44,348 nucleotides of DNA from Candidatus Aminicenantales bacterium (lineage in GTDB: Bacteria > Acidobacteriota > Aminicenantia > Aminicenantales > Saccharicenantaceae), in contig JBEKXF010000026.1 of the NCBI GenBank assembly GCA_049512315.1, forward strand, positions 1 to 44,348, read 5' to 3'. Under the pieces are notes generated by a model, which was not told the DNA's origin, did no database searches, and was given only the letters and a program-made list of their open reading frames with translations. Positions 20,748 through 39,155 of the stretch are shown here, piece by piece. Each line of letters opens with the position of its first letter. The stretch's first letter is position 1. Both the position numbers and the translations under genes were made by a program.

Positions 20748-20936
20748 GGCAGACTCCTCCCCGTGTAACAGCCATGTCACAAAAAATGCTTAAACGCGCT
20801 TAATCCTGACTAAAGGTGCGTAAAGGAAAACAAAACAATTCCCCCTGGAAATTGGGTTTTCCCCATATGGCCAGGAGGGTGGAGCGTTGGACTCCGGATC
20901 CAAAATTCGAAGGTTTGAATCCTCTCTGGCATGCCA
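20748..20936 (+). repeat. att-like direct repeat: arm region plus degenerate tRNA-Arg(CCG) 3' fragment
   Basis: Near-identical to 21737-21925 (period 989 bp); tRNA part 20880-20936. Confidence 0.9.
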
Positions 20937-21047
20937 TTCTTTTACAGCTACCTCACCCATCGGGACCTCATCACCCCGACCCTGATGTTGACAGGATGGT
21001 TCATTCGCGTCCATAATAATATTATCAAGTTTGAGGGAAGGTTTGGA

Positions 21048-21626
21048 ATGAAAAATACAGGTACAAGTTTCCTTTTTATCCCCCTGATTCTCATGAGCGT
21101 CGTGTTGGCTCCGAATTGCGCGACGATCATTCAACGGAGCATGCAAAGAATCCCGGTGACGTCTTCTCCCGTTGGCGCCGCGGTCACTGTCGACGGCCAG
21201 AAACAAGGTGTGACTCCGCTCGATATATATCTGTCCAGGCAGGAGAAGGGTCAGGTTATTCGGATCGAATCCCCAGGATATAATTCCTTCGAAATCCACG
21301 TTAAGCGCAGGCTGTCGGGAGCCCCGATCCTCGGTAACGTCCTCCTCGGAGGGCTCGCCGGACTTAGCGCGACTGCGATCTATGGGCTGAGTCGCGGGAT
21401 TTTTTGGGCCAATAACAGAACCGCAAATTTGATCTTTGTCGTCGGTGGCGTAGTGTCCTTTGGAGTCTGTATGCTCATCGATGCCGCCGGTAAAGGATAC
21501 ACGCTGACGCCGACCGAACTCACGGTGACTTTGACTAAGGTCGACGGGCCGCCCCGAGTCGATATGGTTCTCGTCGACGCCGGCGACTTTCGAAACGTCA
21601 AGTGGATCCGAATCCGTAAAGATTGA
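21048..21626 (+). CDS. PEGA-domain (lipo)protein
   Basis: Signal ending in C; VTSSPVGAAVTVDG..GVTP PEGA motif; two hydrophobic segments. Confidence 0.8.
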   Translation: MKNTGTSFLFIPLILMSVVLAPNCATIIQRSMQRIPVTSSPVGAAVTVDGQKQGVTPLDIYLSRQEKGQVIRIESPGYNSFEIHVKRRLSGAPILGNVLLGGLAGLSATAIYGLSRGIFWANNRTANLIFVVGGVVSFGVCMLIDAAGKGYTLTPTELTVTLTKVDGPPRVDMVLVDAGDFRNVKWIRIRKD

Positions 21627-21736
21627 GCGCCCGGGCAGTTGGCCTCCTCCGCGGGTCTCCTTATCAAGCTGCCCTTCAGCTCGGGCAACCGCTGGCATGC
21701 AGCCGTGGCTGCTGAAATGCAGGGCTTGCTTTCAAG

Positions 21737-21925
21737 GGCAGACCTCTCCTCGTGTCACAGCCATGTCACAAAAAATGCTTAAACGCGCTTAATTCTGACT
21801 AAAGGTGCGTAAAGGAAAACAAGACATTTCCCCCTGGAAATCGGGTTTTCCCCATATGCCCAGAAGGGTAGAGCGTTGGACTCCGGATCCAAAGGTCGGA
21901 GGTTCGAATCCTCTCAGGCACGCCA
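21737..21925 (+). repeat. att-like direct repeat: arm region plus tRNA-Arg(CCG) 3' fragment
   Basis: TGTCACA x2 at 11-bp spacing followed by the tRNA 3' part. Confidence 0.9.
21869..21925 (+). tRNA. tRNA-Arg(CCG) 3' fragment (5'-truncated)
   Basis: Anticodon arm ttgga-ctCCGga-tccaa, T-arm with GGTTCGAATCC, acceptor strand ending CCA; the 5' acceptor strand is absent. Confidence 0.85.
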
Positions 21926-22221
21926 TCGATTTTCCCCCGAGAAACTCGAGAAGATTCCGCCAAATCGGGATCATAAAGCCCCGAATCCGATATGAGCTTG
22001 AATGAGGGGGAATTAGCACCAGATAGCCCCAGACACGATAAGAATCTTGAGCCTCCATTTTTTCGGATCCCGGACTTTCCCGGCTCTCCAGGATCCGGCG
22101 TTTTCAGTCCATTTTGGCACGCCACAGTCACACGGGCGGCACACGGGGAACGGATGGTCGGGGAGTTGCTTTTTATCTTAAATTAATATTTAATTATGGC
22201 ATCTGCGAATAGGAGGGAGAA

Positions 22222-22422
22222 ATGGATACCCCTCGTACCTTTAACGCTACCCAAGAAATCGACCCTGAACGGATTGAAGAATTATACGCACTGCTCGGGC
22301 TGGATGATGAAAAAAAGCGAGAACCGTTTCTGGCGTTCTACGAGTCTCAGCAGAAGCCGGAAGATGTTAGGTGCATTTGGACCTCCGATAGCGTGCGGTC
22401 GGCTGCAATCGAAGGGGACTAA
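22222..22422 (+). CDS. Small acidic hypothetical protein
   Basis: RBS ggagggag; ends 2 nt before the protease ATG. Confidence 0.6.
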   Translation: MDTPRTFNATQEIDPERIEELYALLGLDDEKKREPFLAFYESQQKPEDVRCIWTSDSVRSAAIEGD

Positions 22423-22424
22423 GG

Positions 22425-23336
22425 ATGCCCAACTGGAGCGGACTTCTTAATAATATCAAGGCGCTGGGGAGCGTTAATGACGTTCTCCGACGTAAATACC
22501 TCAAAGAACTATCAGAAAAAACGAAAAGAAACACAATAATCTACTACAGCGGCTGGCTACAAAAACCAGGGGTTCCATTCGCTCTGATTAACGACGATGA
22601 CAAGAACGGATTCATGGCGACGATCAATAAACTTGATAGGTCGCTCGGTCTCGATTTGATTTTACATACCCCCGGCGGCGAGACAGCTGCCACTGAATCT
22701 ATAGTCGATTATTTGAGACAGATGTTTGGAACTAACATCAGGGCAATCGTGCCTCAACTTGCCATGTCGGGCGGAACCATGATTGCTTGTGCGTGCAAGT
22801 CAATATTAATGGGTAAAGAATCGAGTTTGGGACCCGTAGACCCACAACTGAATGGGATTCCGGCGCATGGAGTGATTGAGGAATTCACGAGAGCACATCA
22901 AGAAATCAGGGCGGATCCTTCAAAAATCCCAGTGTGGCAGCCGATTATTGCCAAATACCCACCGGCATTTATTGGAGAATGCCAAAAGGCCATAACGTGG
23001 TCTGTTCAACTCCTGCAGGATTGGCTGAAGACAGGGATGTTCCAAGGCGAAGCCAACCCAGATGCGAAAATCGGCGGGATTGCACGTGAATTGACCGACC
23101 ACGCCCTTACGTTATCTCATGCTCGGCATCTCTCGGCTGAAAAATGTGTAGCGATGGGCTTAAAAGTTGAGATGCTTGAGAGTGACCAGCAACTTCAGGA
23201 TGCCGTGCTCAGCGTTCACCATGCTTGTATGTTAACACTCTCCCAGACGTCTGCTGTGAAGATGATCGAAAATCAAGAAGGCACCGCATTTATTCAACAG
23301 GTTCAAATTCAACAAATCCAGGTTCCGGGTAGATAA
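22425..23336 (+). CDS. SDH-family (S49-like) Clp-fold serine protease
   Basis: LDLILHTPGG, AMSGGTMIA, SSLGPVDPQ, SHARH. Confidence 0.88.
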   Translation: MPNWSGLLNNIKALGSVNDVLRRKYLKELSEKTKRNTIIYYSGWLQKPGVPFALINDDDKNGFMATINKLDRSLGLDLILHTPGGETAATESIVDYLRQMFGTNIRAIVPQLAMSGGTMIACACKSILMGKESSLGPVDPQLNGIPAHGVIEEFTRAHQEIRADPSKIPVWQPIIAKYPPAFIGECQKAITWSVQLLQDWLKTGMFQGEANPDAKIGGIARELTDHALTLSHARHLSAEKCVAMGLKVEMLESDQQLQDAVLSVHHACMLTLSQTSAVKMIENQEGTAFIQQVQIQQIQVPGR

Positions 23337-23542
23337 CCCCCTGGATTCGCTATCCAGAGGTCAACCCTGGACGAAAAGACTTGATGTCGAGAATCCTGTC
23401 GAGGTGGATCCGGTCGTCCAGGGTGACGAAGGACGGGTGCTCTCAGGCCGGGGAGGGTCAGAGGCTGGGCCCTCCGTTGCGCCAGAGGACGCGGTTCGGC
23501 AATCGGGGCAGACCCCCGCGCTGTAAATGTCTATGCGCCCTC

Positions 23543-23740
23543 AAAAAATTGAGCAGAGATTGAGCAAACTCTTGCTCAAAAGAGCTCAGTCTAGCCTAAA
23601 CGTGATAAAACCATCAAGATCGTTAAATGCAAGAAAAATAGGCCGGGTGCGGTCCAACAGGGGAGAATCAGTCGCTGCTGATTTCTTCTGAGATCGTTTT
23701 TGAAGTCCGGAGGGATCACCGGATCCCTCACCCTCCCGTC
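23543..23740 (+). repeat. att-like direct repeat: arm region plus tRNA-Sec 5' half
   Basis: Aligns with 27129-27327 (period about 3586 bp). Confidence 0.85.
23699..23737 (-). tRNA. selC: tRNA-Sec(UCA) 5' half, truncated at the end of the anticodon loop
   Basis: GGGAGGGT-GA-GGGATC-CGGT-GATCCC-T-CCGGA-CTTCAAA fits selC geometry (8-nt acceptor strand, 6-bp D stem, 4-nt D loop, UCA anticodon). Confidence 0.8.
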
Positions 23741-23817
23741 GGAGGGATGATGGTATTGCGTCTCAGAACTAGTGTCAAGGACCGATGTCATCTGCCGCCA
23801 TTCGTCCCAAGCTCGGA

Positions 23818-23847
23818 TTGACTTCCCGCCCATCCCTCTGATAATCT
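23818..23847 (+). promoter_or_regulatory. Kinase promoter
   Basis: TTGACTtcccgcccatccctctgaTAATCT. Confidence 0.7.
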
Positions 23848-23875
23848 GAGCCCAAGCTACAGAAGGGGAACTCGC

Positions 23876-26800
23876 TTGGCCAACAAATGCCCGACCTGTC
23901 ATTCCGACAATCCTGAGACTCTGAAATTCTGCGGGGAGTGCGGCACCCAGCTCCTTCCGCCCCAAAACCATCCTCCGGCCATGACGGAAACCCTTCAGAC
24001 GCCCGTCCACGAGCTCACCTCGGGCTCCACCTTCGCCGGCCGCTACCAGGTGATCGAAGAGCTGGGCCACGGCGGCATGGGCCGGGTCTATAAGGTCTTC
24101 GACACAGACATCAAGGAGAAGATCGCCCTCAAGCTCCTGCGGCCCGAGATCGCGCTCGACAAAGAGACCGTCGAACGCTTCTCGAACGAGCTCAAGCTCG
24201 CCCGGAAGATCAGCCAACGCAACGTCTGCCGGATGTTCGACCTCGGTAAGGCCGAAGGCACGACCTTCATTACCATGGAGTTCGTGCCGGGCGAGGACTT
24301 AAAGAAGTTTATCCGGAAGACGGGCCAGCTCGGGGCGGGCCGAACCGTCTCGATTGCGAAGCAAGTATGCGAGGGATTGGCGGAGGCCCACCACTTCGGG
24401 GTTGTCCATCGCGACCTGAAGCCCCAGAACATCATGGTGGACGAGGACGGGAACGCCCGGATCATGGACTTCGGCATCGCCCGTTCCATCAAGGCTAAAG
24501 GAATCACCGGCGCCGGGGTGATGATCGGGACGCCGGAGTACATGTCGCCGGAGCAGGTCGAGGGGAAGGAGGTTGACCAGCGCTCGGATATCTATTCGCT
24601 GGGGGTCATCCTCTTCGAGATGGTGACGGGCCATGTGCCGTTCGAGGGCGACACGCCTTTTACCATTGGCGTGAAGCACAAGAGCGAGCGGCCCCGGAAC
24701 CCGCGCGAGCTTAATTCCCAGCTTCCCGAGGACCTTAGCCGGGTCATCCTCCGCTGCCTGGAGAAGGATAAAGCCAAGCGCTATCAAACGGCGGGGGAAT
24801 TGCGGGCCGACCTCGAAAAGGTCGAGCAGGGCCTGCCGACGACCGAGCGCGTTATCGCTCCCAAGAAGTCTTTCAGTTCCCGGGAGATCACCGTTAAGTT
24901 CAACCTACGAAAGCTCGCCGTCCCTTTAACAGCCTTCATCGTCCTGGCCGCCGCGGCCGTCATTCTTGTGAAATTCATCCCTCACAAAAAGGCGCCTGCC
25001 GCGCCCAAGATCGAGAACTCCATAGCCGTCATCAGCTTTGAGAATCATACGGGAGATAAAGCCTTCGACTATTTACAAAAGGCCATTCCTGACCTTCTGA
25101 TCACCAGCCTGGAGCGGGAAAACAAGCTCTATGTGGCCACCTGGGAACGGATGCAAGACCTTCTTGAACAGATGGGAAAAAAGAATGTCGAAGTCATCGA
25201 CAGGCCACTCGGTTTTGAACTATGCCGAAAAGAAGGAATCAAGACGATCGTTTTGGGCAGCTACATCAAGGCCGGAGAGACCTTTGCCACAGATGTGAAA
25301 GTGTTGGACGTGGACACCAAGAAACTGCTCAGGAGCTCCAGCTCAAAGGGAGAGGGCGTTTCCAGCATCATCAATAACCAGATCGATGAACTGACCAAGG
25401 AGATCTCCGAGGGCGTAGGCCTGGCGGGAAAAGGCGTTGAACCCGCAGAGAGGTCGATCGCTGATGTCACGACCAGTTCGATGGAAGCTTACAGATATTA
25501 TTTGGAGGGGAGGGAGAATTACCAAAAGACCTATGCCGTTGATGCGCGGATCGCTTTAGAAAAGGCCGTTAAGCTTGATCCGGATTTTGCCATGGCTTAT
25601 TACTTACTCTCTTTGTCAAATGGTTACCTCGGAAATGATGAAGCCCAGGTCGCCGCCCTTAAAAAGGCCAAAGCTTTGTCGCTCAAGGCAACCGAAAAGG
25701 AAAGGCTCTATATCGAGGCGTATTATGCCGACCTCGTAGAAAAAGATTCTGAAAAATGTTTGCGCATCCTCCGGCAGATGGTCGAAAAATATCCCAAGGC
25801 AAAAGGAATATTTTTTAATCTGGGTATTCATTACGTTAATAAGGAAGCCTATGATGAAGCCATAATAGAGTATAATAGAGCCCTGGAGCTCGATCCCAAC
25901 TATGGAATGGCCCATAATAACTTAGGTTTTGTCTATATCGCTACAGGGGATTTTTCAAAGGCGGTTGAGCATCTTCAAAAATACGTGTCCTTGCGTCCGG
26001 GTGAGGCCAATCCGCTTGATTCTCTGGCTGAGGCCTATTTTGATATGGGCCAGCTGGATGAGGCCATAGCGAATTACAAAGAAGCGTTAAAGATAAAATC
26101 TGATTTTTTTAATTCCTGTTTTAGTGTCGGGTACACTTATGCCTTGAAGGCGGACTATGCTGAGGCGCTGAGATGGATGGATAAATTCACCGCCATGGCT
26201 CCTTCTCCGGGGACAAAAAGGGCGGGGTATCTATGGAAAGGGTTTTGCCGCTTCTGGTCGGGGAGTTTGAAGGACGGCGATTTTTACTTTCGTGAAGCCG
26301 AAGAAACGTCAGAACCGGGGTATGTTTGGGGGCGACCGTTCATAAACTGGGTCAAGGCCTTCATTTATTACGACCGGGGAGAGCTGGATCAAAGCCGCAG
26401 GTCTAATGAAGCCTGGCTTAACGATTTTATTAAAGTTTATCCTGAAGACAAATTACACTATCAGGAAGTCTATAAATTCCTATCGGGGCTATTAGAATTA
26501 AAAGCCGGGCATATGGATTCAGCCAAGAATATATTATCAGAGATGAAATCACTCTTTATAAAGATGCCGCCCTGGCGGAAAGAATGGGTGTCGTTCTATA
26601 TCAATTTCCTAAGTGCCGAGTTGGCGATAAAAGCCGGATCCCCCGAAAAGGCTATCGCGGTTTTAAAGGAACAAACACCCTTACGCCCACCAACCCTTAG
26701 TTTTCAAGATTCAACGATGTGGTATAACCTGCCCATCATGAAGGACGTCTTGCCCCGGGCGTATGAGCAGAAAGGCGACATAGACGGAGCCATTGCTGAA

Positions 26801-27016
26801 TATGAGCGGCTGATCACCTTTAACCCCAAGAACCTCTCGCGCTATCTCATCCATCCCAAATACCATTACCGGCTGGCTAAGCTTTACGAACAGAAAGGCC
26901 TGAAGGCGAAAGCGGTCGAGCAATACCAGCGCTTCCTCGACCTCTGGAAGGACGCCGACCCCGGCCTGCCAGAGGTTGCGGATGCTCGGAAGCGGCTGGC
27001 CGGTCTTCAGAATTGA
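23876..27016 (+). CDS. Zinc-ribbon Ser/Thr protein kinase with TM, TolB-N-like domain and TPRs (K4)
   Basis: TTG start; kinase motifs; SIAVISFEN; TPRs; [15 protein letters not shown] tail. Confidence 0.95.
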
Positions 27017-27128
27017 TATTGGCGGCTTCGCCCTCCCCGTTGCCTCGACGTCAGTGCAAGGGTAGGATTGGGCCTCGATTCTCCCCAACATAAAGGCGGG
27101 CCACCCCACCATAATTGTCATAGGTCGA

Positions 27129-27327
27129 AAAAAATTGCGCAGAGATTGTGCAGACTCCTGCACAAAATAGCTCAGTCTAGCCTAAACGTGATAAAACCAT
27201 CAAGATCTGTAAATGCAAGAAAAACAAGCCGGATGCGGTCCAACAGGGGAGAATCCACCAGTGCCAATTTCCGCCGGGATCGTTTTTGAAGTCCGGAAGG
27301 CCCACCGGGAACCTTGACCCTCCCGTC
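27129..27327 (+). repeat. att-like direct repeat: arm region plus tRNA-Sec 5' half
   Basis: Aligns with 23543-23740. Confidence 0.85.
27285..27324 (-). tRNA. selC: tRNA-Sec(UCA) 5' half, second allele
   Basis: GGGAGGGT-CA-AGGTTC-CCGGT-GGGCCT-T-CCGGA-CTTCAAA. Confidence 0.75.
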
Positions 27328-27372
27328 TGTAGCGGCTCCAATGCTTTAAAATTTCACTCCACAGATAGTACA

Positions 27373-27459
27373 GGGACTTTATCCTTGAAAAATGGTCCAT
27401 CCATAATGTGAGCTTGAAAATCTCACTTCAGAGGTGGTACGTTGAGCTAGGGCAGGTCA
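27373..27459. mobile_element. About 90-bp palindromic MITE-like unit (two IS3-like ends)
   Basis: Homologous to 41729-41819; ends ggcaggtca. Confidence 0.6.
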
Positions 27460-27460
27460 C

Positions 27461-27595
27461 CTTCGAAAGAAGTGGACCTTCCGCCACAGGGGCTGGGCTA
27501 TGATACACTCCCAGCTGATGATCTATTTTGGCGACCGTTTGGGTGAACGTGCTTAAATGCGAAGAAGGGGTTTACGCAGGATATCTGACACTCCC
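27461..27595 (+). mobile_element. IS256-family 3' remnant (transposase C-terminus plus right IR)
   Basis: LRKKWTFRHRGWAMIHSQLMIYFGDRL* then tttacgcaggatatctgacactccc. Confidence 0.75.
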
Positions 27596-27706
27596 GGGAT
27601 TCAAGCTTAGCAGCGTGTCCTTTTTTCCGGGGGAAGACTACGTCTCATAATGGGGCTCAACAAACCTTGTATCTTTACTGTTGCACTTGGGACATTTATA
27701 CTGGGT

Positions 27707-28279
27707 TTATTTCTTTATCTTCTTCCCTTCCGAAAATGCATCGCCCAAGTATTTACCAATACCATAATAGGTGCGGTTTGCCGGATCAAAGATCATCGGT
27801 TTTATCTTCCCGATGTCAGGCGCTCCGTCTTTCCCTAGCACCGCCTCATCGGCCTTTACATCCTTGATCTCGCCGATAAAGAGCGTATGTGATCCTAATT
27901 TTACAACTTGGATTACGGAGCATTCCAAAATAAATGGGAACTCCTTAACATAAGGGGCATCCACATGGTCGCTTTTTACAGGCGTAAGCTTCGTAGTGGC
28001 AAACTTATCCTCTGTCCTGCCTGAAACAATCCCGAAGTAATCAGCTTCTTTGATAAATTTCTCTGAAGGGATACTTATCGTGAAGGCCTTCCTTGCTATG
28101 ATATTGCCATAGGTATAAGTAGCTTCCCTGATGGAGATTCCGATACAGGGAGGATGTGAACAACAAATACCACCCCAAGCAACGACCATTGCATTCGGCC
28201 TTCCGGATTTATCGTATGATCCTACGACAAAAACAGGCGTTGGAAAAACAGTGGTTTTCGCTCCGATAGGCTTCTTCAT
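27707..28279 (-). CDS. Flavin reductase family protein (flavoredoxin-like)
   Basis: [36 protein letters not shown]. Confidence 0.9.
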
Positions 28280-28522
28280 GACCTGCCGTCGCTCAATGTA
28301 CCACCTCGGAATTGAGATTTTCAAGCCTGACGACCTCTGTAGTGGATGCTTCATATCCATAAGGTCCCTCAAAGAGTTCAGTTCTGGGCATGCTCCGTAC
28401 CTCGTGCTGGGAGAAGCGTGGAAAATGCGCTAGAGGGCGCGAGAGAGGCGGAGAAGGGGAATTTCTGTTCTGGGGCGCATCGGTATTCCAGGGGCACATG
28501 GCTAAACCCGGGCCCAGTTGCC

Positions 28523-28990
28523 TCATCCGTTCTCGCCGAACGACTCGATCAGCCCCTTGAGCACGAGGATATGCGACTGATCCCCTCGCATAAGGTCGAC
28601 AAACAGCTTCTTGAGGGAAGGCTCCGTAACCTTCATGGACGTGTCCAGGTGGATCTTTTCGAAGCGCTTCTCGAACTCGAGCATTTTCTTAAGGCACTCC
28701 AGAAGGGGGGCCTTGCCGTGCCCGAGTGACGCATGGAACATCTTGGCCTCTTCGAATCCTTCCCTGGCATCGTTGTCATCCATCGTGATTCCGGAGAACG
28801 CGTCAGGCATTTCGTCGTAATACGTCTTACCCCTGCGGAGAACATTGGCGTGGTTGACTTCCTCGTTTGCCAGCGTTTTGAGCCGCGTGGCGATGGGCGG
28901 ATCTCCAGAAAGCTCGGCGATCGTTTCATAAAGCTTCGAGATCTGAGTTTCGAACTCCACGCCCAGGTCGAGGAATTTTGGGATGTCCAT
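28523..28990 (-). CDS. Ferritin-like/rubrerythrin-domain protein
   Basis: E..LY, LANEEVNH, second helix pair with DQSH; RBS ggagg. Confidence 0.75.
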   Translation of the reverse strand: MDIPKFLDLGVEFETQISKLYETIAELSGDPPIATRLKTLANEEVNHANVLRRGKTYYDEMPDAFSGITMDDNDAREGFEEAKMFHASLGHGKAPLLECLKKMLEFEKRFEKIHLDTSMKVTEPSLKKLFVDLMRGDQSHILVLKGLIESFGENG

Positions 28991-29239
28991 TGCTGACCTC
29001 CGTCCTAGGAGCTCATCATTCACATGATGGCCATCTATTTCAAGAGCCCGGGGCCATGCCTAGGCCCAGTCACTTCATGTGTCCTGTGCTGCCCCGATTT
29101 TACTGCTACCCTGAAGGCGGCGCAACGTGAAAGTTCTTAGGCCCGCCAGAACGTTTTACGGTCGGAGGCACGCGCCTTGAACTTGCTGTGCAGAAGTCTA
29201 CCGTGGACGAGAGGCCTTGATGTCGATAATCGTTACGAT

Positions 29240-29344: not shown

Positions 29345-29376
29345 CTCACAGTCCACTAATGGAAGGGAGAGTTTCC

Positions 29377-30660: not shown

Positions 30661-30704
30661 GCGGGGTTCGCTGGCCAACGCCTCATATGCTATAATCTTG
30701 CTCC

Positions 30705-31460
30705 ATGAGATACCGGGCCCACCCGCAGCAAGCCGGTTTCTTCCGCCGCTTTTTCGCCTTTGCCACCGACACGCTGATTCTGACGGTCTTGGCCGTCGCC
30801 GTCTTTTTCGCCGGCAACGAGGCCGTCGCCCGGCTCGACGGTAGGTCGGGGGAGTTCTCAAAGTTCGTGCGGGCCCTGCATGAGGGGGCCTCCGTCAGCA
30901 TAAGTATGGGGGACACAGCCTCGGGCTTAGCGATTGGGAATCCCAAGTCGTCTGAAGCCGAATTCACTAAGGCTTTTCTCCAAAAGCTCCGGGCGGCCCT
31001 CTCCGAGGACGAATTCGTCAAGACCATCGGGATGAGTCTAGGGGAACTGGAGAAAGAGTATCCAAGGATCATGGACGAATTCCCCGCCGGCCCCGGCAAG
31101 GTCTATATCATCGGCGGAAAGGACTTGTCCGTCATTTACGAATTCGTCTGCGGCTATGCCTACTTCATATTGTTTTTCCGCTTCGGCGGACGGCCGCTGG
31201 GAAAGCGGCTGTTCGGGCTCAAGGTTATCGACCTCTCTGGCAAGCCCTATCTCGGCTGGTACCAGGCGTTCGAGCGTACGCATGGGTATGCGGCGTCCAT
31301 GCTTGCCGCTTCCCTGGGTTTTCTCCAGGTCCTCTGGGACCACGAGGGCCTAGCGATGCACGACAGACTCGCCGGCACAACGGTCGTCCGGTGGAAAAAG
31401 CCCGTTCCCCCCCCGGCCCCTGATAAGCCCGAGGAGAGTAAAACGGAGGGGGCGCCATAA
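30705..31460 (+). CDS. RDD family membrane protein
   Basis: AGFFRRFFAFATD, GRPLGKRLFGLKVI, MHDRLAGTTVV. Confidence 0.88.
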   Translation: MRYRAHPQQAGFFRRFFAFATDTLILTVLAVAVFFAGNEAVARLDGRSGEFSKFVRALHEGASVSISMGDTASGLAIGNPKSSEAEFTKAFLQKLRAALSEDEFVKTIGMSLGELEKEYPRIMDEFPAGPGKVYIIGGKDLSVIYEFVCGYAYFILFFRFGGRPLGKRLFGLKVIDLSGKPYLGWYQAFERTHGYAASMLAASLGFLQVLWDHEGLAMHDRLAGTTVVRWKKPVPPPAPDKPEESKTEGAP

Positions 31461-31507
31461 AAAGCCCCTGGTCATATTCTGAGCTAGACCTTGCGCCGGG
31501 GCTTTTT
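31459..31507. terminator. Probable terminator
   Basis: aaaagcccc...ggggcttttt right after the RDD stop. Confidence 0.45.
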
Positions 31508-31704
31508 CATTTATACATCATATTCAAGGCCAAAAAAGCGGAAAGCAATAAGGCCAGCTAAGCGCTCGGCCCGCAGGAACGGGCGGTATCACTTCCGGTT
31601 CATGAAGGCGCCGATGTCCGAGGACAACTGCTGAAGCGAGGGAAGGTACGTGTACATCATCTGGCCGCCGGCAGTAATGACCAGATTCGAAAGGAGGAAA
31701 AACA

Positions 31705-32118
31705 ATGTCAAAAGATACTGATGTTCGATGGGGATGGCTGAAATTTATGTATGTCTACACCATTGTTGTGGCAGGAGGATTCGGGTTGGTAATAATTTTT
31801 GTCCCGAATATCATGACATCTGTGTTCGGTTGGCCTATTGAAGAGCCAATAGCTTTGGGAATCGCAGGCAGTGCCTTTATGGCTTTCGGGATTTTATCAA
31901 TATTCGGCCTGCGGGCTCCTCTAAGATTTGTGCCAATTCTCGTACTACAACTGTGCTATAAGTCAATCTGGTTCGTTGGCGTTGTTCTGCCTTTGTTGTT
32001 CACCGGGCGATTTCCAAACTATGCCATATTCTCTGCTGTATTATTCGCCACCTTCATTGTGGGTGATCTGATCGCGATACCGTTTCCTTATATCTTTTCA
32101 AAGCAAACAGGTCAGTAG
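31705..32118 (+). CDS. Hypothetical 4-TM membrane protein
   Basis: RBS aggagg; four hydrophobic helices; QLCYKSIW motif. Confidence 0.8.
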   Translation: MSKDTDVRWGWLKFMYVYTIVVAGGFGLVIIFVPNIMTSVFGWPIEEPIALGIAGSAFMAFGILSIFGLRAPLRFVPILVLQLCYKSIWFVGVVLPLLFTGRFPNYAIFSAVLFATFIVGDLIAIPFPYIFSKQTGQ

Positions 32119-32358
32119 TCTCAGCCCTCGTGCATTGGCATATAATCAGGCAGGCGGTAAACTCTTCCAAGCCGCATAACAACTCCCAGCAGCTGCCCGG
32201 TCAGCTCATCTCGTTGCCGTTGGTACGGTTTTGTGTCTATTAAGTTGGTTCATCAATATTATTAATGGGAACATTTGATAATTTTGGACCCCTAAATATG
32301 CCTCAGCTAGGATTTGAACCTCAGACCGCTAGGTTCACAGTTGCTATCCAAAATTAAG

Positions 32359-32721
32359 CTAAAATTGTAGCCAAGCTGGATTTGAACCTAAATACGCTTG
32401 GTCGCAGGTCAGAAGGCCCTTATACTTGAAGTGCTTCCCTTGTTTGACCATGACACGGCGGGCATCGAGGACCTCCTGCACGGCATCGAACAGGCCCTTG
32501 TCGATTCCGAACATCTTGTAGAACTCCTTAACCGACTTGCCCTCGTCGTGGGCCTTGAGGATGGCGGCCGCGTTCGCGTCGACCTGGCCCTGGATCTTGG
32601 CTGCCTTGTCAGCCTTCTCTTTGGCCGGCTTGACCTCTGCCGTCCTCGTCTTGGTTTCCGTCCCTGCCGGGACCGCCGCGCGGACGGCCTCGACGGCCTT
32701 CGCCGTTTTCTTCTTGGTCAT
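32359..32721 (-). CDS. Hypothetical protein with Lys/Ala-rich N-terminus
   Basis: RBS ggagg before ATG 32721; GC3-rich codons except the last about 15. Confidence 0.6.
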   Translation of the reverse strand: MTKKKTAKAVEAVRAAVPAGTETKTRTAEVKPAKEKADKAAKIQGQVDANAAAILKAHDEGKSVKEFYKMFGIDKGLFDAVQEVLDARRVMVKQGKHFKYKGLLTCDQAYLGSNPAWLQF

Positions 32722-32834
32722 CTTTTCTCCTCCCAGGCCTATAGTCTCAGATTGGTTCCGGAATGCACACAAGAATGTTCCTCAGCAAGTCGCAGATAAC
32801 GGCCGGAATGCGAAAGACATTATTGCCACTGGGA

Positions 32835-33113
32835 CCGTAGGCTATCGGGATTTCGGGGAGAGGGGACATTGTCTGCAGCGTATGGCATGGAAGCTTCAGG
32901 AATACGGTCACTAAATGGATTGACTTCGTGATCCCACGGCGTTATAAATTAACCAGCAAGGGATTAGGGGAAGTCGAAGGTCATCCTTCACCAAAAATCA
33001 ATCTTTGCCGTCCCCGTATCTCTGAATCACTTTAAAGGAGGGGTTCTATGAAACGCTTTGGTTTTGCGGTTGGCCTGGTCCTCTTGGTCTTCGCAGTCTC
33101 GCTCTGGGCACAG
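32835..33113 (+). repeat. Repeated promoter + leader + signal-peptide module (copy 2)
   Basis: Aligns with 8103-8381; TTGACT(32920)-17-TATAAA. Confidence 0.85.
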
Positions 33114-33602
33114 ACGACGGTTCCGAAGCCCGATCTTGAGCTCAAAAAGCTCGGTGTTATCGTGGGCCATTGGACGTACGAAGGCGAGTACATGGCTAGC
33201 CCATTGGGACCGGGTGGAAAGGCCAAAGGCGAGGAGTTTATTCAATGGATTCTGGGAGGATTCTTTTTACAGGATCTGGAGATAGAAAAAGGAGCCCTGG
33301 GGGAGATGCGAGGAGCTCTTCTCTATGCGTACGATCCGGTCAGCAAGAATATTGTCTGTAGCGGACTTGGGAGCGACGGAGGCCCAGCTTCAGGAATCGT
33401 TAAGGTCAGCGGAAACACGATAACTTGGGAAGGAAAGTACGTCTTTGGGGCCAAGGAGAACTTGCTGAAAGCAACCTATATAGTCGCCGTAGACCTCATG
33501 AGCATGACGCAGAAAGTCGAGATTTCCGTAGATGGGAAGACCTGGGCTCCCTTCTTTGATGCCATATTTAGCAAAGCCAAGCCCGCGCCTAAGACGAAGT
33601 AG
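33048..33602 (+). CDS. Secreted DUF1579-like beta-barrel protein
   Basis: Signal peptide; LKKLGVIVGHWTYEG, WILGGFFL, YDP, ISVDGKTW; paralog of 38506. Confidence 0.75.
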   Translation: MKRFGFAVGLVLLVFAVSLWAQTTVPKPDLELKKLGVIVGHWTYEGEYMASPLGPGGKAKGEEFIQWILGGFFLQDLEIEKGALGEMRGALLYAYDPVSKNIVCSGLGSDGGPASGIVKVSGNTITWEGKYVFGAKENLLKATYIVAVDLMSMTQKVEISVDGKTWAPFFDAIFSKAKPAPKTK

Positions 33603-33684
33603 CTGACAGCTGACTGAACAAGACATAAGCGCTGGGGGCCACCCTGTCTGGGGTGGTCTCAAGAGGGTCTGCAAGGGGGTTCCT

Positions 33685-34146
33685 ATGAAACGCATAGCTT
33701 TCGTGGTCGGACTGGTCGTCTTGGTCTTTGCAGTCGCCATCCTGGCCCAGACAGGGGCAAAGCCAAAAGGGCAGACGGCCGAACAAGAGCTGTTGAAGCT
33801 CGAGCAAGAGTGGACGAATGCAGATCTCAAGAGCGATTGGGCCACCATGGACCGGATTCTGGCGGATGACTATGTGCTCACCGACAGAGATGGTGAGGTC
33901 TCCACCAAAGCTCAGTGTGAGGCATTCATGAGGTCCGGCGAGGATAAGATATTAACCCTGGTGACAGACGACATGAAGGTCCGAGTCTATGGAGATGCGG
34001 CGGTAGTAATCCTACGCTCCACGATCAAAGAAACATATCGAGGGGAGGAGATCAGCGACGTCTGTCGGATCACCAATACCTGGATCAAAAAGGCCGGCCG
34101 CTGGCAGTGCGTGGCAACTCACGGCTCAAGAATAGCTGGAAAATAG
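33685..34146 (+). CDS. Secreted NTF2-like/DUF4440 protein
   Basis: Paralog of 8316-8765. Confidence 0.85.
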   Translation: MKRIAFVVGLVVLVFAVAILAQTGAKPKGQTAEQELLKLEQEWTNADLKSDWATMDRILADDYVLTDRDGEVSTKAQCEAFMRSGEDKILTLVTDDMKVRVYGDAAVVILRSTIKETYRGEEISDVCRITNTWIKKAGRWQCVATHGSRIAGK

Positions 34147-34330
34147 CTCCCTAAGGTCTGACGGCCTCTTTAGCTCAACGAGCAATTAGGGGTGCTCGCT
34201 CGCAGTCCCAGTACTGCACAACCATTGCACAGTTGACAGAGGCGTCATCTTAAGCCCCTCTAATTTCTATCAATTAACAATGCCCATTCGGGGTGCCAAG
34301 AACTGGCAGTCCAGCTCTGGCATCCCACGT

Positions 34331-34360
34331 TTGACTTCCCGCCCATGCCTCTGTTAATCT
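34331..34360 (+). promoter_or_regulatory. Kinase promoter
   Basis: TTGACTtcccgcccatgcctctgtTAATCT, identical to 39165. Confidence 0.7.
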
Positions 34361-34387
34361 TGGGCCAAGCTAGAAAAGGGGGCCATT

Positions 34388-36838
34388 GTGGCCATCAAGT
34401 GCCCGATATGTCACGCCGATAATCCCGAGACGGTGAAGTTCTGCGGGGAGTGCGGGACGCAGCTTCCTCCTTCCCAGGGCCATCCTCCAGTCGTGAAGGA
34501 AACCCTCCAGACGCCGGGCATTTGGCTGCCCAAAGGAACGATCGTCGCAGGAAAATACAGGATCATCGATGAGATCGGCCGGGGCGGGATGGGCATTGTC
34601 TATAGGGCTGAAGATACGAAACTCCAGCGCGCCGTCGCCCTGAAGTTTCTGCCCGAAGAGCTGGCCCATGACCACCAGGCCGTCGAGCGTTTCCAGCGCG
34701 AAGCCCGGGCCGCGTCCGCCCTGAACCACCCCCATATCTGCATCATTTACGATATCGATGAACATGAAGGAAAGTACTTTATCGCGCTCGAGTTCCTTGA
34801 GGGGAAGACGCTGCGGGAATATCTGCTGGGCAAGCGGCTGGATGTGGACCAAATTGTCGATATCGGGATTCAGGTTGCCGGCGGGCTTGAGGCCGCCCAT
34901 GCCAAAGGAATAATCCACCGGGACATCAAGCCGGGCAATATTTTCGTGACGGATTCGGGACAGGCCAAAATCCTGGATTTCGGGCTGGCCAAGCTTCTGC
35001 CTGAATGGAGGCCGACAGCCGAGGAGAAGGTCGCTCCCGGGATGCCGACGATGACAGCGGGGGAACTCCTGACCAGTCCAGATTCTACTGTCGGGACGGT
35101 GGCCTATATGTCGCCGGAACAGGCCCTGGGAAAAAACCTGGATGCGCGGACCGACCTGTTTTCCCTGGGAGTCGTCCTCTATGAGATGGCCACAGGAATT
35201 CTCCCATTCCGCGGAGATACGTCGGCCGCGCTCTTCGATGGAATTCTACACAAGGCCCCCGCCCCGCCAATTCGGCTTAACCCCGATCTCCCGGATGAGC
35301 TCGAACGCATCATCGACAAAACGCTCGAGAAAGACCGAGAGGTACGCTACCAGTCGGCCAAGGATGTCATAGTCGACTTGAAACGGCTGAAGCGCGAGCG
35401 CGAGTCCGGACGAGCGACCGTTCCCGGCGCCGCGGAATCCCCGCGCATCCCGTCGCTGGCGGTGCTGCCGTTCGCCAACTTGAGCGCGGACAAGGAGAAC
35501 GAGTATTTCAGCGACGGGTTGGCCGAAGACATTATCGACGCCCTGACGCAAGCGTCCGGGCTGCGCGTGATGGCGCGGACTTCGTCCTTTGCCTTCCGCG
35601 GCAAGGAGGCGGATGTGCGCGAGATCGGGGCGCGCCTCAACGTCGACCACATCCTGGAAGGCAGCGTGCGGCGGTCGGGCAACCGTATCCGAGTGACGGC
35701 CCAGCTGGTCAAGGCGAGCGACGGGTATCACCTGTGGAGCCAGCGCTTCGACCGGGAGATGACGGATGTCTTCGCCATCCAGGACGAGATCTCGCAGGCC
35801 ATTGTCGGGAAGCTGCAGGTACAGCTGACAGGGGGCCGTCCGCTCGTCAGGCGCTACACGGAGGACCTCGCCGCCTATGACCTCTGTCTAAAGGCCCGGT
35901 ACCACCTCTTGAAGATGACGCCGGAAGGGCGCGAGGCGGGCCGGCGCTACTGTGAGCAGGCTATCGCGCTCGACCCAAACTACGCCCTGGCGCATGTTAT
36001 GCTGGCCGAATCCTACTTTTGGAGTGCTTTCTGGGGAGCCGTGGATCCGCGGGATGCATTCTCCAGGGCGAAGTCGGCGGCGCTCGAGGCCCTCAGACTC
36101 GATGAGACCATCGCAGACGCCCACAGCGCATTAGGGACCGTGCTGGGCAGCGGCGAGTTCGATTGGCAGGGAGCTGAGCGGGAATTCCGCCGGGCCCAGG
36201 AGTTGAGGTTGTCCTCCGCGGCGTTCCGATACGACTACGTCTGGTGCTATGCCATGTGGTTTCTCCTGCCCCTGGGGCGAGCGGAACAGGCCTTGACCGA
36301 GATACGGCGGGCGCTGGAGCTGAATCCGCTCGACTCGTTCTACACTTCCCTGTTGGGGTGCCTCCTTTACATGACGCGACAATCCGAGCCAGCGATCGCG
36401 CAACTGCAGCACGCCATCACTCTGGACCCGACCTTCTTCTTCCCCTATTGGTTCCTCTCGCTCGCCCACCGGCTGAATGGGCAGCTCGACGAGTCCATCG
36501 CCGCGGCCGAGAAGGCGAACGAGCTCTCCGGGGGCAATGCGCTGACGCTGGGAGCGCTGGGCAGTGCCTACGGTCTGGCCAGCCGGACCGCCGAGGCGCG
36601 GCAATTGCTGGAGGAGTTGACGGCGCGACGGCGGTTGACCTATGTGCCCGCGTCCGCTTTCACATTTGTCCTTGGTGGTCTGGGAGAACGGGACGGGAGT
36701 CTGGAGTGGATCACAAGGGGTATCGAAGAGCGTGATCCGATCCTTGTGACATCATTCAAGATCTCGCCGAGCTTCGATCGCCTGCGATCTCACCAGGCCT
36801 TTAAGACTCTGCTGCGGAAGATGAACCTGGAACCCTGA
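34388..36838 (+). CDS. Zinc-ribbon Ser/Thr protein kinase with TolB-N-like domain and TPRs, no TM (K5)
   Basis: Kinase motifs (HRDIKP); [11 protein letters not shown]; TPRs. Confidence 0.95.
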
Positions 36839-36862
36839 GCAGGGATCTGCTGCCCGCTTCCA

Positions 36863-36909
36863 TGGACTCCGGATCTAAACGTCGGAGGTTCGAATCCTCT
36901 CAGGCACGC
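36863..36909 (+). tRNA. tRNA-Arg(CCG) 3' fragment
   Basis: tggactccggatctaaacgtcggaggttcgaatcctctcaggcacgc. Confidence 0.8.
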
Positions 36910-37151
36910 TCCCTTATTTTCCGTATTTCAGCCATTCAGCCTATCCCGATCTTCAGTGTGACACGGCGGGGGAGGGCTGTCTCACGGGGCCTTTTAAGAG
37001 TTCTTGACTACGACCCGCGGCCGGGAATATCATCGTTTCGTGATAGGGGGTATTGGCTACAAGCTTAGTGGCGTTAAAGTTGCGTAGCTCAATTGAATAG
37101 TTACCTAAATTTTTATCAATCAGTGGACTACAATCAAAAGGGAGGGAGGAT

Positions 37152-37784
37152 ATGAAAAGAGCGTTGCTTATAATTTTGGGTTTTGGGATTGTGTGCTCGC
37201 AGCTATTATCACAAGAGTTGGTGGTCCGCTTCCACTTCAAGGACCATCCTGAGCAGACGGAGGCAGCGCCCGAGGGGACCGCATTTGGAAGCCTCACAGG
37301 CCCAAATCAGTTCAATATGAGACCAAACGAGCCAGGCTTGCCGAGGTGGCTCAGTGTCCAGTCCCGTGATGATCTCAGCATATTTGGGGATGTATTTCGA
37401 AAAGCCTTGATATCCGATTTTGGAACATCGGAGGAAAACGATCCTGAACGAAAACTTATAAGGACGCGCCGCCTAGTCTCCGGTTTAGGGTTGGCCATCA
37501 GCTGGATAGGGACGGTCGTCGTTGATCTTCTCTATGATGATTGGTATCGATCGACCACAGTGATCCCCGTGGCGGGACCTTGGATAACGCTAGCCAGATT
37601 GGCGAGCCATCACGATCCAGGTTGGCCTGGGGCAAAAGCACTCCTTATTCTCTCCGGTGTCGCTCAAACCAGCCTTGCGACATATTTCATCATTTCACTA
37701 ACACGGCATCCCAAACCGAAAGAAACGAAAAGCGTGGCGATATCGGCGAGTTTCAATACAATCAACTTGAGGATTCAATTCTAG
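37152..37784 (+). CDS. Hypothetical exported/membrane protein
   Basis: RBS ggagg, signal peptide, IPVAGPW hairpin motif, C-terminal INLRIQF. Confidence 0.75.
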   Translation: MKRALLIILGFGIVCSQLLSQELVVRFHFKDHPEQTEAAPEGTAFGSLTGPNQFNMRPNEPGLPRWLSVQSRDDLSIFGDVFRKALISDFGTSEENDPERKLIRTRRLVSGLGLAISWIGTVVVDLLYDDWYRSTTVIPVAGPWITLARLASHHDPGWPGAKALLILSGVAQTSLATYFIISLTRHPKPKETKSVAISASFNTINLRIQF

Positions 37785-37925
37785 TTGAACGGTGCAGACG
37801 GACCTCGAGGGCGCGGTTCAGTAACAGATGCCGACGTATACGGCCGTGTCGGGCGAGAATTAGGGTCGAAGCCGGGGGGTCGGGACGTCCTCGGTCTGGC
37901 CGGCGATTCTGTCGGAGAGGCTCTC

Positions 37926-37968
37926 GACTCCGGATCCAAAGGTCGGAGGTTCGAATCCTCTCAGGCAC
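37926..37968 (+). tRNA. tRNA-Arg(CCG) 3' fragment
   Basis: gactccggatccaaaggtcggaggttcgaatcctctcaggcac, identical to the corresponding part of 21869-21925. Confidence 0.85.
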
Positions 37969-38169
37969 CTTCTGGACAGCCGCTCAACCCTATCTTAGGT
38001 TGTCTGTAAGTTAATCAGAGCGACGGTCCCATCGTCGACCCCATCGTCGCAGTGCGTTGGGCGCCGGTCAATCGTCTTTCCTGGCTAATCGGGGGGGGAT
38101 ATTTCGGTTTCAGGCCTCACCCTCAGGGGGGGAGGGAAACCCTACGGTCACGCGGGGAGAGGTCTTCGT

Positions 38170-38224
38170 TTAGAGCAGCAGACTCTTAATCCGCGGGTTG
38201 TAGGTTCGAGTCCTACACGGGTCA
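38170..38224 (+). tRNA. tRNA-Lys(CUU) 3' fragment
   Basis: tagagca-gcaga-ctCTTaa-tccgc-gggtt-gtagg-ttcgagt-cctac-acgggtca; no 5' acceptor strand. Confidence 0.8.
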
Positions 38225-38361
38225 TTCCCGTCTTCCAGAAATCTCAACCACTTACCCTGATTCCCTTTTTAGGCTGAGTTAGCAGAACTGAGCCATTTTA
38301 GGCGGTTTTGTCCCCGCCGTGTCCGCACGGCGGCTTCGGGGGATAAGTCGGCTCTAGCCTA

Positions 38362-38390
38362 TTGACTTCGTGTTCTCGCAATGCTATAAA
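38362..38390 (+). promoter_or_regulatory. Sigma70-type promoter
   Basis: TTGACT-17bp-TATAAA. Confidence 0.7.
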
Positions 38391-38505
38391 TTAAGGTACA
38401 GTAGATTAGGGCTAAACCGGGGTCAGTATAAGTCAGCTGATCGTTCACCTTGAAGGTGCCTTTTCTTCTCCCTAATCTATGAATTTTGTAAAAAGGAGGG
38501 GTTTT

Positions 38506-39054
38506 ATGAAACGTATGGCTCTTGTGGTTGGCATGGTCGTCTTGGTTTTCGCAGTCTCCCTTTGGGCTCAGACAACGGCTCCGCAGCCCGATCCAGAGCT
38601 CAAGAAGTTCGACGTCTTTTTGGGCCATTGGACATACGTGGGAGAATACAAGGCCGGCCTGTTGGGGCCAGCTAGCAAGGTTACGGGGGATTGGTCCGGC
38701 AACCAGATTCTCGGAGGATTCTTTTTTCAGGACCAGTTTACAGAAAAAGGGGTTGCTGGAGAGACGAGGGGATTTGAGATCATCGGCTACGACCCGGCGA
38801 ACAAGACCTTTTTCAGTAATGAATACCATAACGATGGAAACATGCTCTCAGGGGCGTATGCCTTCAGTGGAAGCACATTGACCTATACCGGCAAATTTAC
38901 CGTCGGAGGAAAGCCGTATATGATCAAGGCCACAGGCATATTAGCGGCGGATTCGATGAGTTTCACGATAAAAGCCGAAATCTCTCCCGATGGCACGACG
39001 TGGACGCCTTTTTTTGAAAATACATATACCAAGACCACGCCCACACCGAAGTAA
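38506..39054 (+). CDS. Secreted DUF1579-like beta-barrel protein
   Basis: Paralog of 33048; RBS aggagg; same signal-peptide family. Confidence 0.75.
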   Translation: MKRMALVVGMVVLVFAVSLWAQTTAPQPDPELKKFDVFLGHWTYVGEYKAGLLGPASKVTGDWSGNQILGGFFFQDQFTEKGVAGETRGFEIIGYDPANKTFFSNEYHNDGNMLSGAYAFSGSTLTYTGKFTVGGKPYMIKATGILAADSMSFTIKAEISPDGTTWTPFFENTYTKTTPTPK

Positions 39055-39117
39055 TAACTGACTGCCGACGGGGCGAGACAAAGGCGCTAGGCAACGCTGA
39101 GTCCGGAACGAATCGTA

Positions 39118-39155
39118 ACTCCGGATCCAAAGGTCGGAAATCCGAATCCTCTCAG
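39118..39155 (+). tRNA. Degenerate tRNA-Arg(CCG) 3' fragment
   Basis: actccggatccaaaggtcggaaatccgaatcctctcag. Confidence 0.7.

Follow-up and report, generated by a model that had tools for sequence, protein, structure and literature searches.

What brings fragments of tRNA genes, with single genes between them, into a stretch of bacterial DNA that has no intact tRNA gene of its own? The question is raised by contig JBEKXF010000026.1 of the Candidatus Aminicenantales bacterium assembly GCA_049512315.1, and in particular by its region 20748-39155. The window analysed here is the whole of this contig (C26, 44,348 nt), one of 77 contigs in an assembly of 3.55 Mb. In the following, G000 denotes the source genome, other G numbers (G0xx, G1xx) related genomes, and L numbers (L1xx) metagenome loci or contigs. 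We conclude that the region probably consists of promoter-bearing modules without integrase, of the kind known as cis-mobilizable elements (CIMEs), which have been stacked and reshuffled by tRNA-targeting integrases acting from elsewhere.

The tRNA pieces were detected by a repeat search, with Rfam, and by blastn with the genome's own tRNAs as called by ARAGORN. ARAGORN finds no intact tRNA in the window. The repeat search returned a 47-nt unit in five direct copies, starting at 20888, 21877, 36863, 37924 and 39115 (spacings 989, 14986, 1061 and 1191), and a pair of 180-nt repeats at 23543 and 27129 (spacing 3586). According to blastn, the five copies are 3' parts of tRNA-Arg(CCG), which begin at tRNA positions 21-32 and are 89-100% identical to the tRNA. 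Together with two 5' parts of tRNA-Sec and one 3' part of tRNA-Lys(CUU), they make up the pieces found between 20748 and 39161. All eight match the genome's own tRNAs with 82-100% identity. In searches of the whole genome their E-values range from 3e-9 to 6e-30, well outside what chance would give: the pieces are real. Pieces of the same type share one strand, and are thus direct repeats. At the curated threshold Rfam reports a single partial tRNA (21858-21914), and at a permissive threshold weak tRNA or tRNA-Sec matches at 20870-20931, 38159-38224, 23661-23737 (minus strand) and 27247-27324 (minus strand), with no further tRNA-like piece in 1-20800 or 39000-44348. The initial annotation, made from the sequence alone, had listed these same eight fragments as direct repeats with no intact tRNA among them. 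This is confirmed, and a ninth, nearly erased Arg remnant was added by direct reading (Table 1).

The start-to-start spacings of 989, 1061 and 1191 bp between Arg pieces and of 3586 bp between the Sec pieces define four short intervals. As had been proposed, each of them encloses one plausible gene, and each gene is preceded by a promoter-like site. The 1191-bp interval, which holds a DUF1579 gene, also encloses the Lys piece. All open reading frames (ORFs) of at least 70 aa in the window (161, i.e. 40 + 121) were scanned against Pfam. None of the 161 has a recombinase or transposase domain, PF00589 (tyrosine integrase) has no match on the contig, and no replication gene was found in these scans, in line with the earlier claim that the window lacks a recombinase. 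Promoter-like sites number 21 in 20600-39400, compared to 11.6 +/- 3.5 in shuffles. The cargo consists of kinases and exported proteins, again as suggested before. The kinases at 34388 and about 39221 come straight after an Arg end, and three more kinases (12111-20743) lie before the first piece.

The arrangement is not special to 20748-39155, as the whole contig and many others are built alike. A blastn search with all tRNAs found 63 non-gene matches in the genome, two of them overlaps at contig ends, and the pieces are spread over more than 20 contigs. The most common types are Arg(CCG) with 26 and Arg(CCT) with 11 matches, followed by Thr(CGT) with five, Sec, His and Leu(CAA) with three each, and others. 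Nearly all pieces are 3' parts, and the Sec pieces are 5' parts. A 69-nt Arg unit alone has 31 matches on 16 contigs. Neighbouring pieces are separated by at most 8 kb in 38 cases, and these intervals contain one ORF (13 cases), none (13) or two to nine (12). The interval of the PEGA-domain gene is counted as empty here, its ORF call overlapping the piece. Among the empty intervals, five are spacers 190-210 nt long that separate adjacent pieces, in most cases of unlike tRNA types.

Integrases of the expected kind are present in the genome. PF00589 has 13 matches, all on other contigs, and the intact tRNA-Arg(CCG), tRNA-Lys(CUU) and tRNA-Sec genes, which the initial annotation had proposed to locate together with adjacent integrases, were found on C11, C14 and C17. 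On C17, the gene for a 537-aa integrase at 47872-49485 stops 9 nt short of the intact tRNA-Sec. About 45 kb upstream, at the far end of the stretch that this integrase closes, C17:4086-4280 consists of a piece with tRNA-Sec positions 1-39 and an arm. The two Sec units of the window are close matches to this sequence (Table 1) and therefore sites of the same type, so that a cognate-type integrase for them is encoded in the same genome. On C24, a 361-aa integrase gene at 35117-36223 and its HTH_17 (excisionase-like) neighbour at 36398-36679 lie directly against an Arg(CCG) piece, and a kinase module follows the piece. Protein identity is 31-84% among nine integrases whose linked sites are of Sec, His, Ser, Arg(CCT), Arg(CCG), Thr and Lys type, and these integrases form one family. 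These data support the earlier suggestions that the pieces are footprints of attachment sites, that integrases of several specificities are involved, and that the modules are discrete one-gene units without a recombinase of their own.

Some pieces are accompanied by conserved arms. Arg pieces 1 and 2 form the ends of two 190-nt repeats that are 91% alike, here called class A units. An alignment of 21 rows (18 distinct copies from several families) shows that about 75 nt beside the tRNA part hardly vary, and that a doubled TGTCACA-type motif lies outward of this block. All seven occurrences of the doubled motif in the genome are within 150 nt of an Arg(CCG) piece, and the left arm that follows the intact tRNA also has it, on C11, on C66, and in G102. 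The conserved block and the doubled motif resemble integrase arm sites, and may function as such. A motif search around all 26 Arg(CCG) pieces found shared arm motifs only at the class A units and in one left-arm type. The left arms that follow Arg pieces 2-4 and the Lys piece each occur only once in the genome. The gene-less 202-nt spacer before the Lys piece may be an arm of the Lys site. In an exact-pattern scan of reference genomes, the class A arm was found at six loci only, five with the label Candidatus Aminicenantes and one with the label Eubacteriales.

The very strong conservation of the class A unit could also mean that the unit, or the pieces in general, are kept as working RNA: as signals for processing, as terminators, or as a small RNA resembling tRNA that would punctuate transcripts. 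Pieces do lie directly after stop codons and directly before promoters, and the tRNA-Sec model can be aligned to the Sec units over the full length (24 bits). However, apart from the one partial tRNA match, Rfam scores are below threshold, RNAalifold predicts only weak structure (-17) and no convincing fold for the 21 class A rows, and the pieces begin at variable tRNA positions, from 19 to 39. The direct-repeat logic and the link to integrases would also be left unexplained. We therefore consider an RNA role very improbable.

In a metagenome-assembled genome, repeats of this sort could give chimeric joins, and the array could then be an artefact of assembly or binning. The assembly is in 77 contigs, and contig ends fall in repeats. 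Window positions 1-122 recur at the ends of six other contigs (C4, C12, C36, C54, C55 and C62) with 98-100% identity and in relatives with 83-94%. The inner part of this sequence resembles a promoter module, and the whole is a multi-copy element that breaks assembly. Public data consist of short assembled contigs from 24 matching metagenome runs (peat, wetland, sediment, soil or unspecified), and in the four runs compared with the region the contigs break at every piece. Yet L114, an independent metagenome contig, is 100% identical to 15048-27623 across four tRNA pieces, and this part at least is thus no binning or assembly artefact; the earlier concern about misassembly is not borne out. The stretches between the repeats are each covered without differences by contigs from runs of at least three studies, most repeats are non-identical or shorter than the usual assembly word sizes, and the same architecture is present in closed genomes of relatives. 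An artefact is accordingly extremely unlikely. One run, X5, covers only part of the modules, which fits modular content and is not used as evidence. Contig joints in the runs were also considered, but their sides are only 20-42 nt long and lie in repeated sequence, where other loci or organisms are possible, and nothing was drawn from them.

The modules are not only discrete but also variable in order. A fixed gene order in relatives would have spoken against mobile modules. In fact, 20748-39155 is collinear in none of 40 related genomes, where matches are gene-sized and scattered, and the flanks (1-12100 and 41700-44348) are not collinear in 25 relatives, so that no conserved frame surrounds the array. 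With no part of the contig collinear with any of these 25-40 relatives, the whole contig belongs to the flexible genome. Metabolic genes in 705-8073 also match singly at scattered places in relatives.

Three relatives have arrays that begin at an intact tRNA-Arg(CCG). In G102, this gene is followed by 2.5 kb with three small ORFs and then by a class A unit, and in G109 by a 12.8-kb metal-efflux island and then a class A unit; no integrase is found among the ORFs of either island. In G018, four same-strand pieces lie 32-44 kb downstream of the tRNA, and the first 19 kb contain restriction and modification genes. An integrase can also stand at the head of an array. On contig C5 of G014, Thr(CGT) pieces (six) and Arg(CCG) pieces (two) come after a gene for a 369-aa integrase, and kinase genes start 63-94 nt past three of the pieces.

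The cargo itself recurs beside tRNA pieces in other genomes, often of a type other than in the window. Relatives of the kinase gene at 23876 are found in G014 (78% nucleotide identity) behind Thr and Arg pieces and before another Thr piece, in G027 (87%) 230 nt behind an intact tRNA-Ala gene, in G032 (87%) with an Arg(CCG) piece right after, and in G020 (70%) behind Arg(CCT) and Arg(CCG) pieces. At the G003 locus (86%) no tRNA piece was seen. The gene for the 210-aa protein, which in the window lies between Arg pieces, lies in G001 (69%) between two Lys pieces and beside the gene for a 373-aa integrase. The DUF1579 module, preceded by a Lys piece in the window, has an Arg(TCG)-like piece before it in G006 and a tRNA gene before it in G004 (tRNA-Arg(TCG)) and G003 (tRNA-Leu(CAA)); in G002 and G007, neither a piece nor a gene of this kind was found upstream. 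A metagenome scan with the PEGA-domain protein found 11 loci, one of them source-like and the other ten with 46-55% aa identity. Eight of these ten lie beside an Arg(ACG) piece or gene or a tRNA-Sec gene, in six cases within about 200 nt and in L119 and L120 with the tRNA gene about 1.3 kb away; there is none beside the gene in L115 and L118. By our estimate, one tRNA feature per about 32 kb of genome would bring such proximity to a few per cent of genes by chance. It had been reasoned that finding the same genes elsewhere without flanking repeats would argue against cassettes; in other genomes, tRNA pieces flank them as well.

The edges of the modules are sharp. Homology between the DUF1579 modules of G000 and G006 extends from the end of the tRNA piece to about 10 nt before the next piece (Arg piece 5). 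L116 and L117 are 94-98% identical in their common parts and differ by whole modules, exactly at a tRNA end or piece. The order in L116 is tRNA-Arg(ACG), PEGA gene, piece, 1.29-kb unit and flank, and in L117 tRNA, 2.0-kb unit, piece, PEGA gene, piece and flank. The extra units start with the same arm of about 45 nt, and the far end of the 1.29-kb unit has no piece. C2 was considered as an empty site at tRNA-Arg(ACG), as it shares the 5' flank of the PEGA arrays in L116, L117 and L120, but was rejected, for it holds a different 6.7-kb stretch.

These observations bear on the possibility that the pieces are eroded remnants of large, integrase-bearing islands which integrated serially at tRNA genes, and that the one-gene intervals never moved as units. 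In favour of this, the window has no integrase, decay is seen in several pieces (81-92% identity), conserved arms are missing from Arg pieces 3-5, and an integrase on C66 is truncated; remnants of this sort are described for Prochlorococcus islands in the tycheposon preprint (10.1101/2020.12.28.424599). However, erosion would require that the same gene survived repeatedly beside a tRNA piece, as for the PEGA gene at eight of ten loci and with three tRNA types, and the kinase, the 210-aa gene and the DUF1579 gene are likewise beside tRNA features in several genomes. From the stop codons it is 25-70 nt to the next piece, and the DNA in between holds no integrase debris. L116 and L117 differ by whole modules at tRNA ends, and the islands of G102 and G109 already lack an integrase beside an intact tRNA. 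Erosion of large islands is thus unlikely.

The preferred reading, modules moved by integrases, is further supported by signs of horizontal spread. For rpoB, the identity to G003, G018, G014, G027 and G032 is 93, 85, 82, 81 and 78%. The kinase gene is 87% identical in G027 and G032, in excess of the 81% and 78% for rpoB, and this DNA has thus moved between families. In G027, the genome's own tRNA-Arg(CCG) differs in the anticodon stem and acceptor stem, and the pieces at 2420-4574 are nevertheless 98-100% identical to the tRNA-Arg(CCG) type of the G000 family. They match a foreign tRNA type, and hence the pieces travel with mobile DNA. In the window, Arg piece 1 (20882-20936) shares with C39:652-701 the same differences from the genome's tRNA, in the T stem and acceptor, and this set of differences looks like another lineage's tRNA allele and not like random decay. 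At L085 (G027:C1), an Arg(CCG) piece at 2420-2819 is interrupted in the T arm by about 356 nt of inserted sequence with a small ORF at its end, which points to a second crossover position in the same tRNA piece.

Alternatively, arrays could grow mainly by duplication, through unequal homologous recombination between repeats of 40-190 nt, and the tRNA pieces would then be passengers of paralogue expansion. The window does contain paralogues (six kinases and two genes each for DUF1579 and DUF4440), homologous exchange would be aided by the 190-nt class A repeats, and in four kinases the junction between tRNA end and promoter is kept to the base. Duplication leaves unexplained, however, why G027 has Arg pieces of a foreign type, why the kinase is closer than rpoB across families, why the same cargo lies behind different tRNA types, and why arrays start exactly at intact tRNA genes. 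Moreover, the pieces before kinases are 92-100% identical to the tRNA, whereas the starts of the kinase genes are only 68-82% alike. As the main route of growth, duplication is therefore quite improbable.

Several points nevertheless weigh against modules moved by integrases. With identical junctions in four of them, the kinases could in part have multiplied as copies of a unit that comprises piece, promoter and gene. Many cargo pairs are only 46-79% identical, so that their shared association with tRNA pieces is old and not a record of recent hops. Likewise, Arg pieces 1 and 5 and Sec piece 1 are only 82-92% identical to the tRNAs, and some of the events must be old. Arg pieces 3, 4 and 5 share no arm with any other copy in the genome and may be dead scars, and the PEGA module, which has a class A arm to its right, lacks a motif to match it in a left arm. 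Only one integrase gene lies immediately behind a perfect Arg(CCG) piece, and this gene, on C66, encodes a stump of 137 aa. Among the contigs of four runs on window positions 20201-40200, no circular junction, empty site or excision product was seen, but these contigs end at every tRNA piece or repeat, where such forms would be out of view. Finally, the intact tRNA-Arg(CCG), tRNA-Lys and tRNA-Sec genes are on other contigs of the 77-contig assembly.

How the modules would move can be outlined as follows. A module would consist of one or a few genes with their own promoter-like site, bounded by Arg(CCG), Sec or Lys(CUU) pieces, and the pieces would be crossover sites of the tRNA-targeting tyrosine integrase family encoded on other contigs. 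Carrying a tRNA-derived core, and often an arm, a module could enter or leave by recombination with a tRNA gene or an existing piece, with an integrase provided in trans or by an adjacent element that encodes one. If two distant pieces of the same type recombined, a composite block that still holds pieces of other types would move. Such movement would explain the interleaved tRNA types, the same cargo behind different tRNA types, and the gene-less spacers of about 200 nt. It would also explain nested layouts, such as Thr, arm with Arg, kinase and Thr in G014, or Arg, spacer with Lys, DUF1579 and Arg in the window. The integrases would then act on the window sites as well, and single modules may be mobile at present, beyond the movement of larger blocks.

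A wider reading is quite possible, and is put forward tentatively. The modules may belong to a lineage-wide cassette system that has converged on integrons, with promoter-bearing, recombinase-less one-gene cassettes that carry one or two tRNA cores, a diversified integrase family acting in trans, and arrays at many tRNA genes. Two cores would allow a cassette to change its home tRNA, and the main stock of the system would be sensor kinases and exported proteins.

Table 1. Coordinates of tRNA pieces, arm-bearing units and gene modules in the window.
Feature	Position	Strand	Description
Class A unit 1	20748-20937	+	conserved arm of about 120 nt with doubled TGTCACA-type motif, variant D-arm, and Arg piece 1 of foreign allele type
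Arg piece 1	20882-20936	+	tRNA-Arg(CCG) positions 23-77, 89%
PEGA module	20988-21626	+	promoter-like site 20988-21017 (11/12 consensus positions); PEGA-domain membrane protein gene 21048-21626
Class A unit 2	21737-21926	+	same arm as unit 1, with Arg piece 2
Arg piece 2	21869-21925	+	tRNA-Arg(CCG) positions 21-77, 100% to the genome's own tRNA
Protease gene	22425-23336	+	SDH-type ClpP-like serine protease, between Arg piece 2 and Sec unit 1
Sec unit 1	23543-23737	-	Sec piece 1, then arm of about 157 nt; 86% identical to C17:4086-4280
Sec piece 1	23699-23737	-	tRNA-Sec positions 1-39, 82%
Kinase module	23811-27016	+	conserved promoter-leader 23811-23867 (site 23818-23845); zinc-ribbon Ser/Thr kinase with TPR domain 23876-27016
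Sec unit 2	27129-27324	-	Sec piece 2 and same arm of about 157 nt; 93% identical to C17:4086-4280
Sec piece 2	27285-27324	-	tRNA-Sec positions 1-39, 97.5%
Ninth Arg remnant	34300-34322	+	nearly erased 3' part, read directly; joined to kinase leader with 2-nt spacing as at 39155
Kinase module	34324-36838	+	promoter-leader 34324-34380; Ser/Thr kinase with TPR domain 34388-36838
Arg piece 3	36863-36909	+	tRNA-Arg(CCG) positions 29-75, 96%; 25 nt past kinase stop; without conserved upstream arm
210-aa module	37004-37784	+	promoter-like site 37004-37033; gene for 210-aa signal-peptide protein 37152-37784
Arg piece 4	37926-37968	+	tRNA-Arg(CCG) positions 31-73, 100%
Spacer	37969-38170	+	gene-less, 202 nt, between Arg piece 4 and Lys piece
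Lys piece	38171-38225	+	tRNA-Lys(CUU) positions 21-75, 98%
DUF1579 module	38226-39114	+	left arm 38226-38330 (conserved behind tRNA-Lys in other families); promoter-like site 38362-38390, read directly; exported DUF1579 protein gene 38479-39054
Arg piece 5	39118-39155	+	tRNA-Arg(CCG) positions 32-69, 92%
Kinase module	39158-41713	+	promoter-leader 39158-39214, starting 2 nt past the tRNA end; Ser/Thr kinase with TPR domain about 39221-41713

Some further features of the window concern the genes and repeats around the modules. The protease has a match to PHROG family 11747 (function unknown) with E = 1e-94. A direct repeat of 86 nt (73% identity) occupies 23339-23424, just past the protease gene, and 29175-29260, just ahead of a promoter module. 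This promoter-like module (TTGAAA, 18 nt, TAcatT, with TG ahead) is present at 27412-27459, 29297-29345, 41729-41819 and 6826-6851 on the plus strand and at 28279-28326 on the minus strand. It precedes unrelated genes, has 7-16 copies in the genome, and is often back-to-back with a fragment of a Lys-rich gene tail. Such tail fragments are found at 376-509 (plus strand) and at 6600-6851, 29181-29347, 42557-42751 and 44089-44245 (minus strand), and have about 25 copies in the genome. They comprise the last 30 or so codons and the terminator of a small Lys-rich HTH-like gene, of which intact versions exist at C61:4527-4949 and C67:3062-3580. A paralogue in the window (32359-32772, minus strand) has a different C-terminus from the point where the tail fragments begin. 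Judged from this layout, the fragments resemble footprints of attachment sites of a second kind, located in a protein gene. The small Lys-rich protein has no name from Pfam or PHROGs, where a weak DUF6115 match was the only one.

A 130-nt non-coding repeat, at 27466-27595 and 43739-43868, belongs to a family with 13-16 copies in the genome and others in relatives. In the window it follows a promoter module and has no ORF behind it, and it could be a small RNA. Among the exported DUF4440 and DUF1579 paralogues (8182-8765, 32835-33292, 33674-34146 and 38361-38680), upstream regions and the coding starts for the signal peptides are common across families, as if promoter and leader had been exchanged in block.

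Aminicenantes are abundant, uncultured bacteria of sediments and peat, and to our knowledge nothing has been established experimentally about their gene exchange. Full-text searches of the literature found no paper on such arrays in Aminicenantes. If the modules move as proposed, they would provide a simple and general route to acquire, express and discard single genes. The promoter would be brought by the module, the docking sites would be borrowed from tRNA genes, and many passengers would share a few integrases. The lineage would thereby have evolved, independently, another answer to the problem solved by integrons. The large and patchy repertoire of sensor kinases and the poor assembly of the flexible genome would both be explained. 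The named sites and integrases make the idea directly testable in a heterologous host.

Among known systems, the modules are most readily compared to CIMEs, which together with tandem accretion at tRNA genes have been described for the ICESt1/ICESt3 family of ICEs, elements that are both integrative and conjugative (review PMC5704250). As described there, CIMEs are bounded by attachment sites, lack genes for integration and transfer, and can lie in tandem at a tRNA-derived site; movement is expected only with the recombinase of another element, and composite excision patterns are expected (PMC5704250). The ORF and PF00589 scans of the window likewise found no integration or transfer genes. As to attL and attR, core repeats lie at both ends of the four intervals, whereas conserved arms occur at the class A and Sec units only and at none of Arg pieces 3-5. 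The units of the window differ in that they mostly consist of one gene with its own promoter, number dozens per genome, and have tRNA specificities interleaved in one array. Furthermore, no conjugative helper is known here, and descent from a decayed ICE or integrative and mobilizable element is not evident.

The tycheposon islands of Prochlorococcus are also formed at tRNA genes by tyrosine recombinases and carry niche genes as cargo, and the preprint describes side-by-side elements parted only by a partial tRNA and more partial tRNAs scattered within the islands (10.1101/2020.12.28.424599). As presented there, however, tycheposons have their own integrase, often a replication module, and one tRNA per island. 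The modules of the window have neither an integrase nor a replication module, the tRNA types are mixed in one stretch, and the same cargo lies behind different tRNA types. In the tRNA and tmRNA islands treated in the Islander work (PMC4383910), the island ends are marked by an intact tRNA and a displaced direct-repeat fragment, and crossover takes place in the anticodon or T-loop region. The displaced fragments are found in the window as well. In contrast to those islands of many kb, the units here measure about 1-3.6 kb, and the window has fragments only, with no integrase in any of the 161 ORFs. An intact target tRNA at the end of the array is absent from the contig and present in G018, G102 and G109.

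Integrons and their integrase-less relatives, the clusters of attC sites lacking integron-integrases (CALINs), are arrays of small, mostly one-gene cassettes that each end in a recombination site; the local integrase may be absent, and the cassettes form a stockpile of accessory genes. The initial annotation had called the array integron-like. The analogy is loose: it fits the one-gene, recombinase-less modules but not the other features. The boundaries are tRNA pieces with or without arms instead of attC hairpins (no attC model was run), and the contig has no platform integrase. Integron cassettes are promoterless and read from a platform promoter beside intI, whereas here promoter-like sites precede the PEGA, kinase, 210-aa and DUF1579 genes. 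The integrases are of phage type and of several specificities, unlike IntI. What is distinct about the system is thus the small and self-sufficient nature of the modules, their number, the mixture of tRNA types within an array, and the presence of the same cargo behind different tRNAs.

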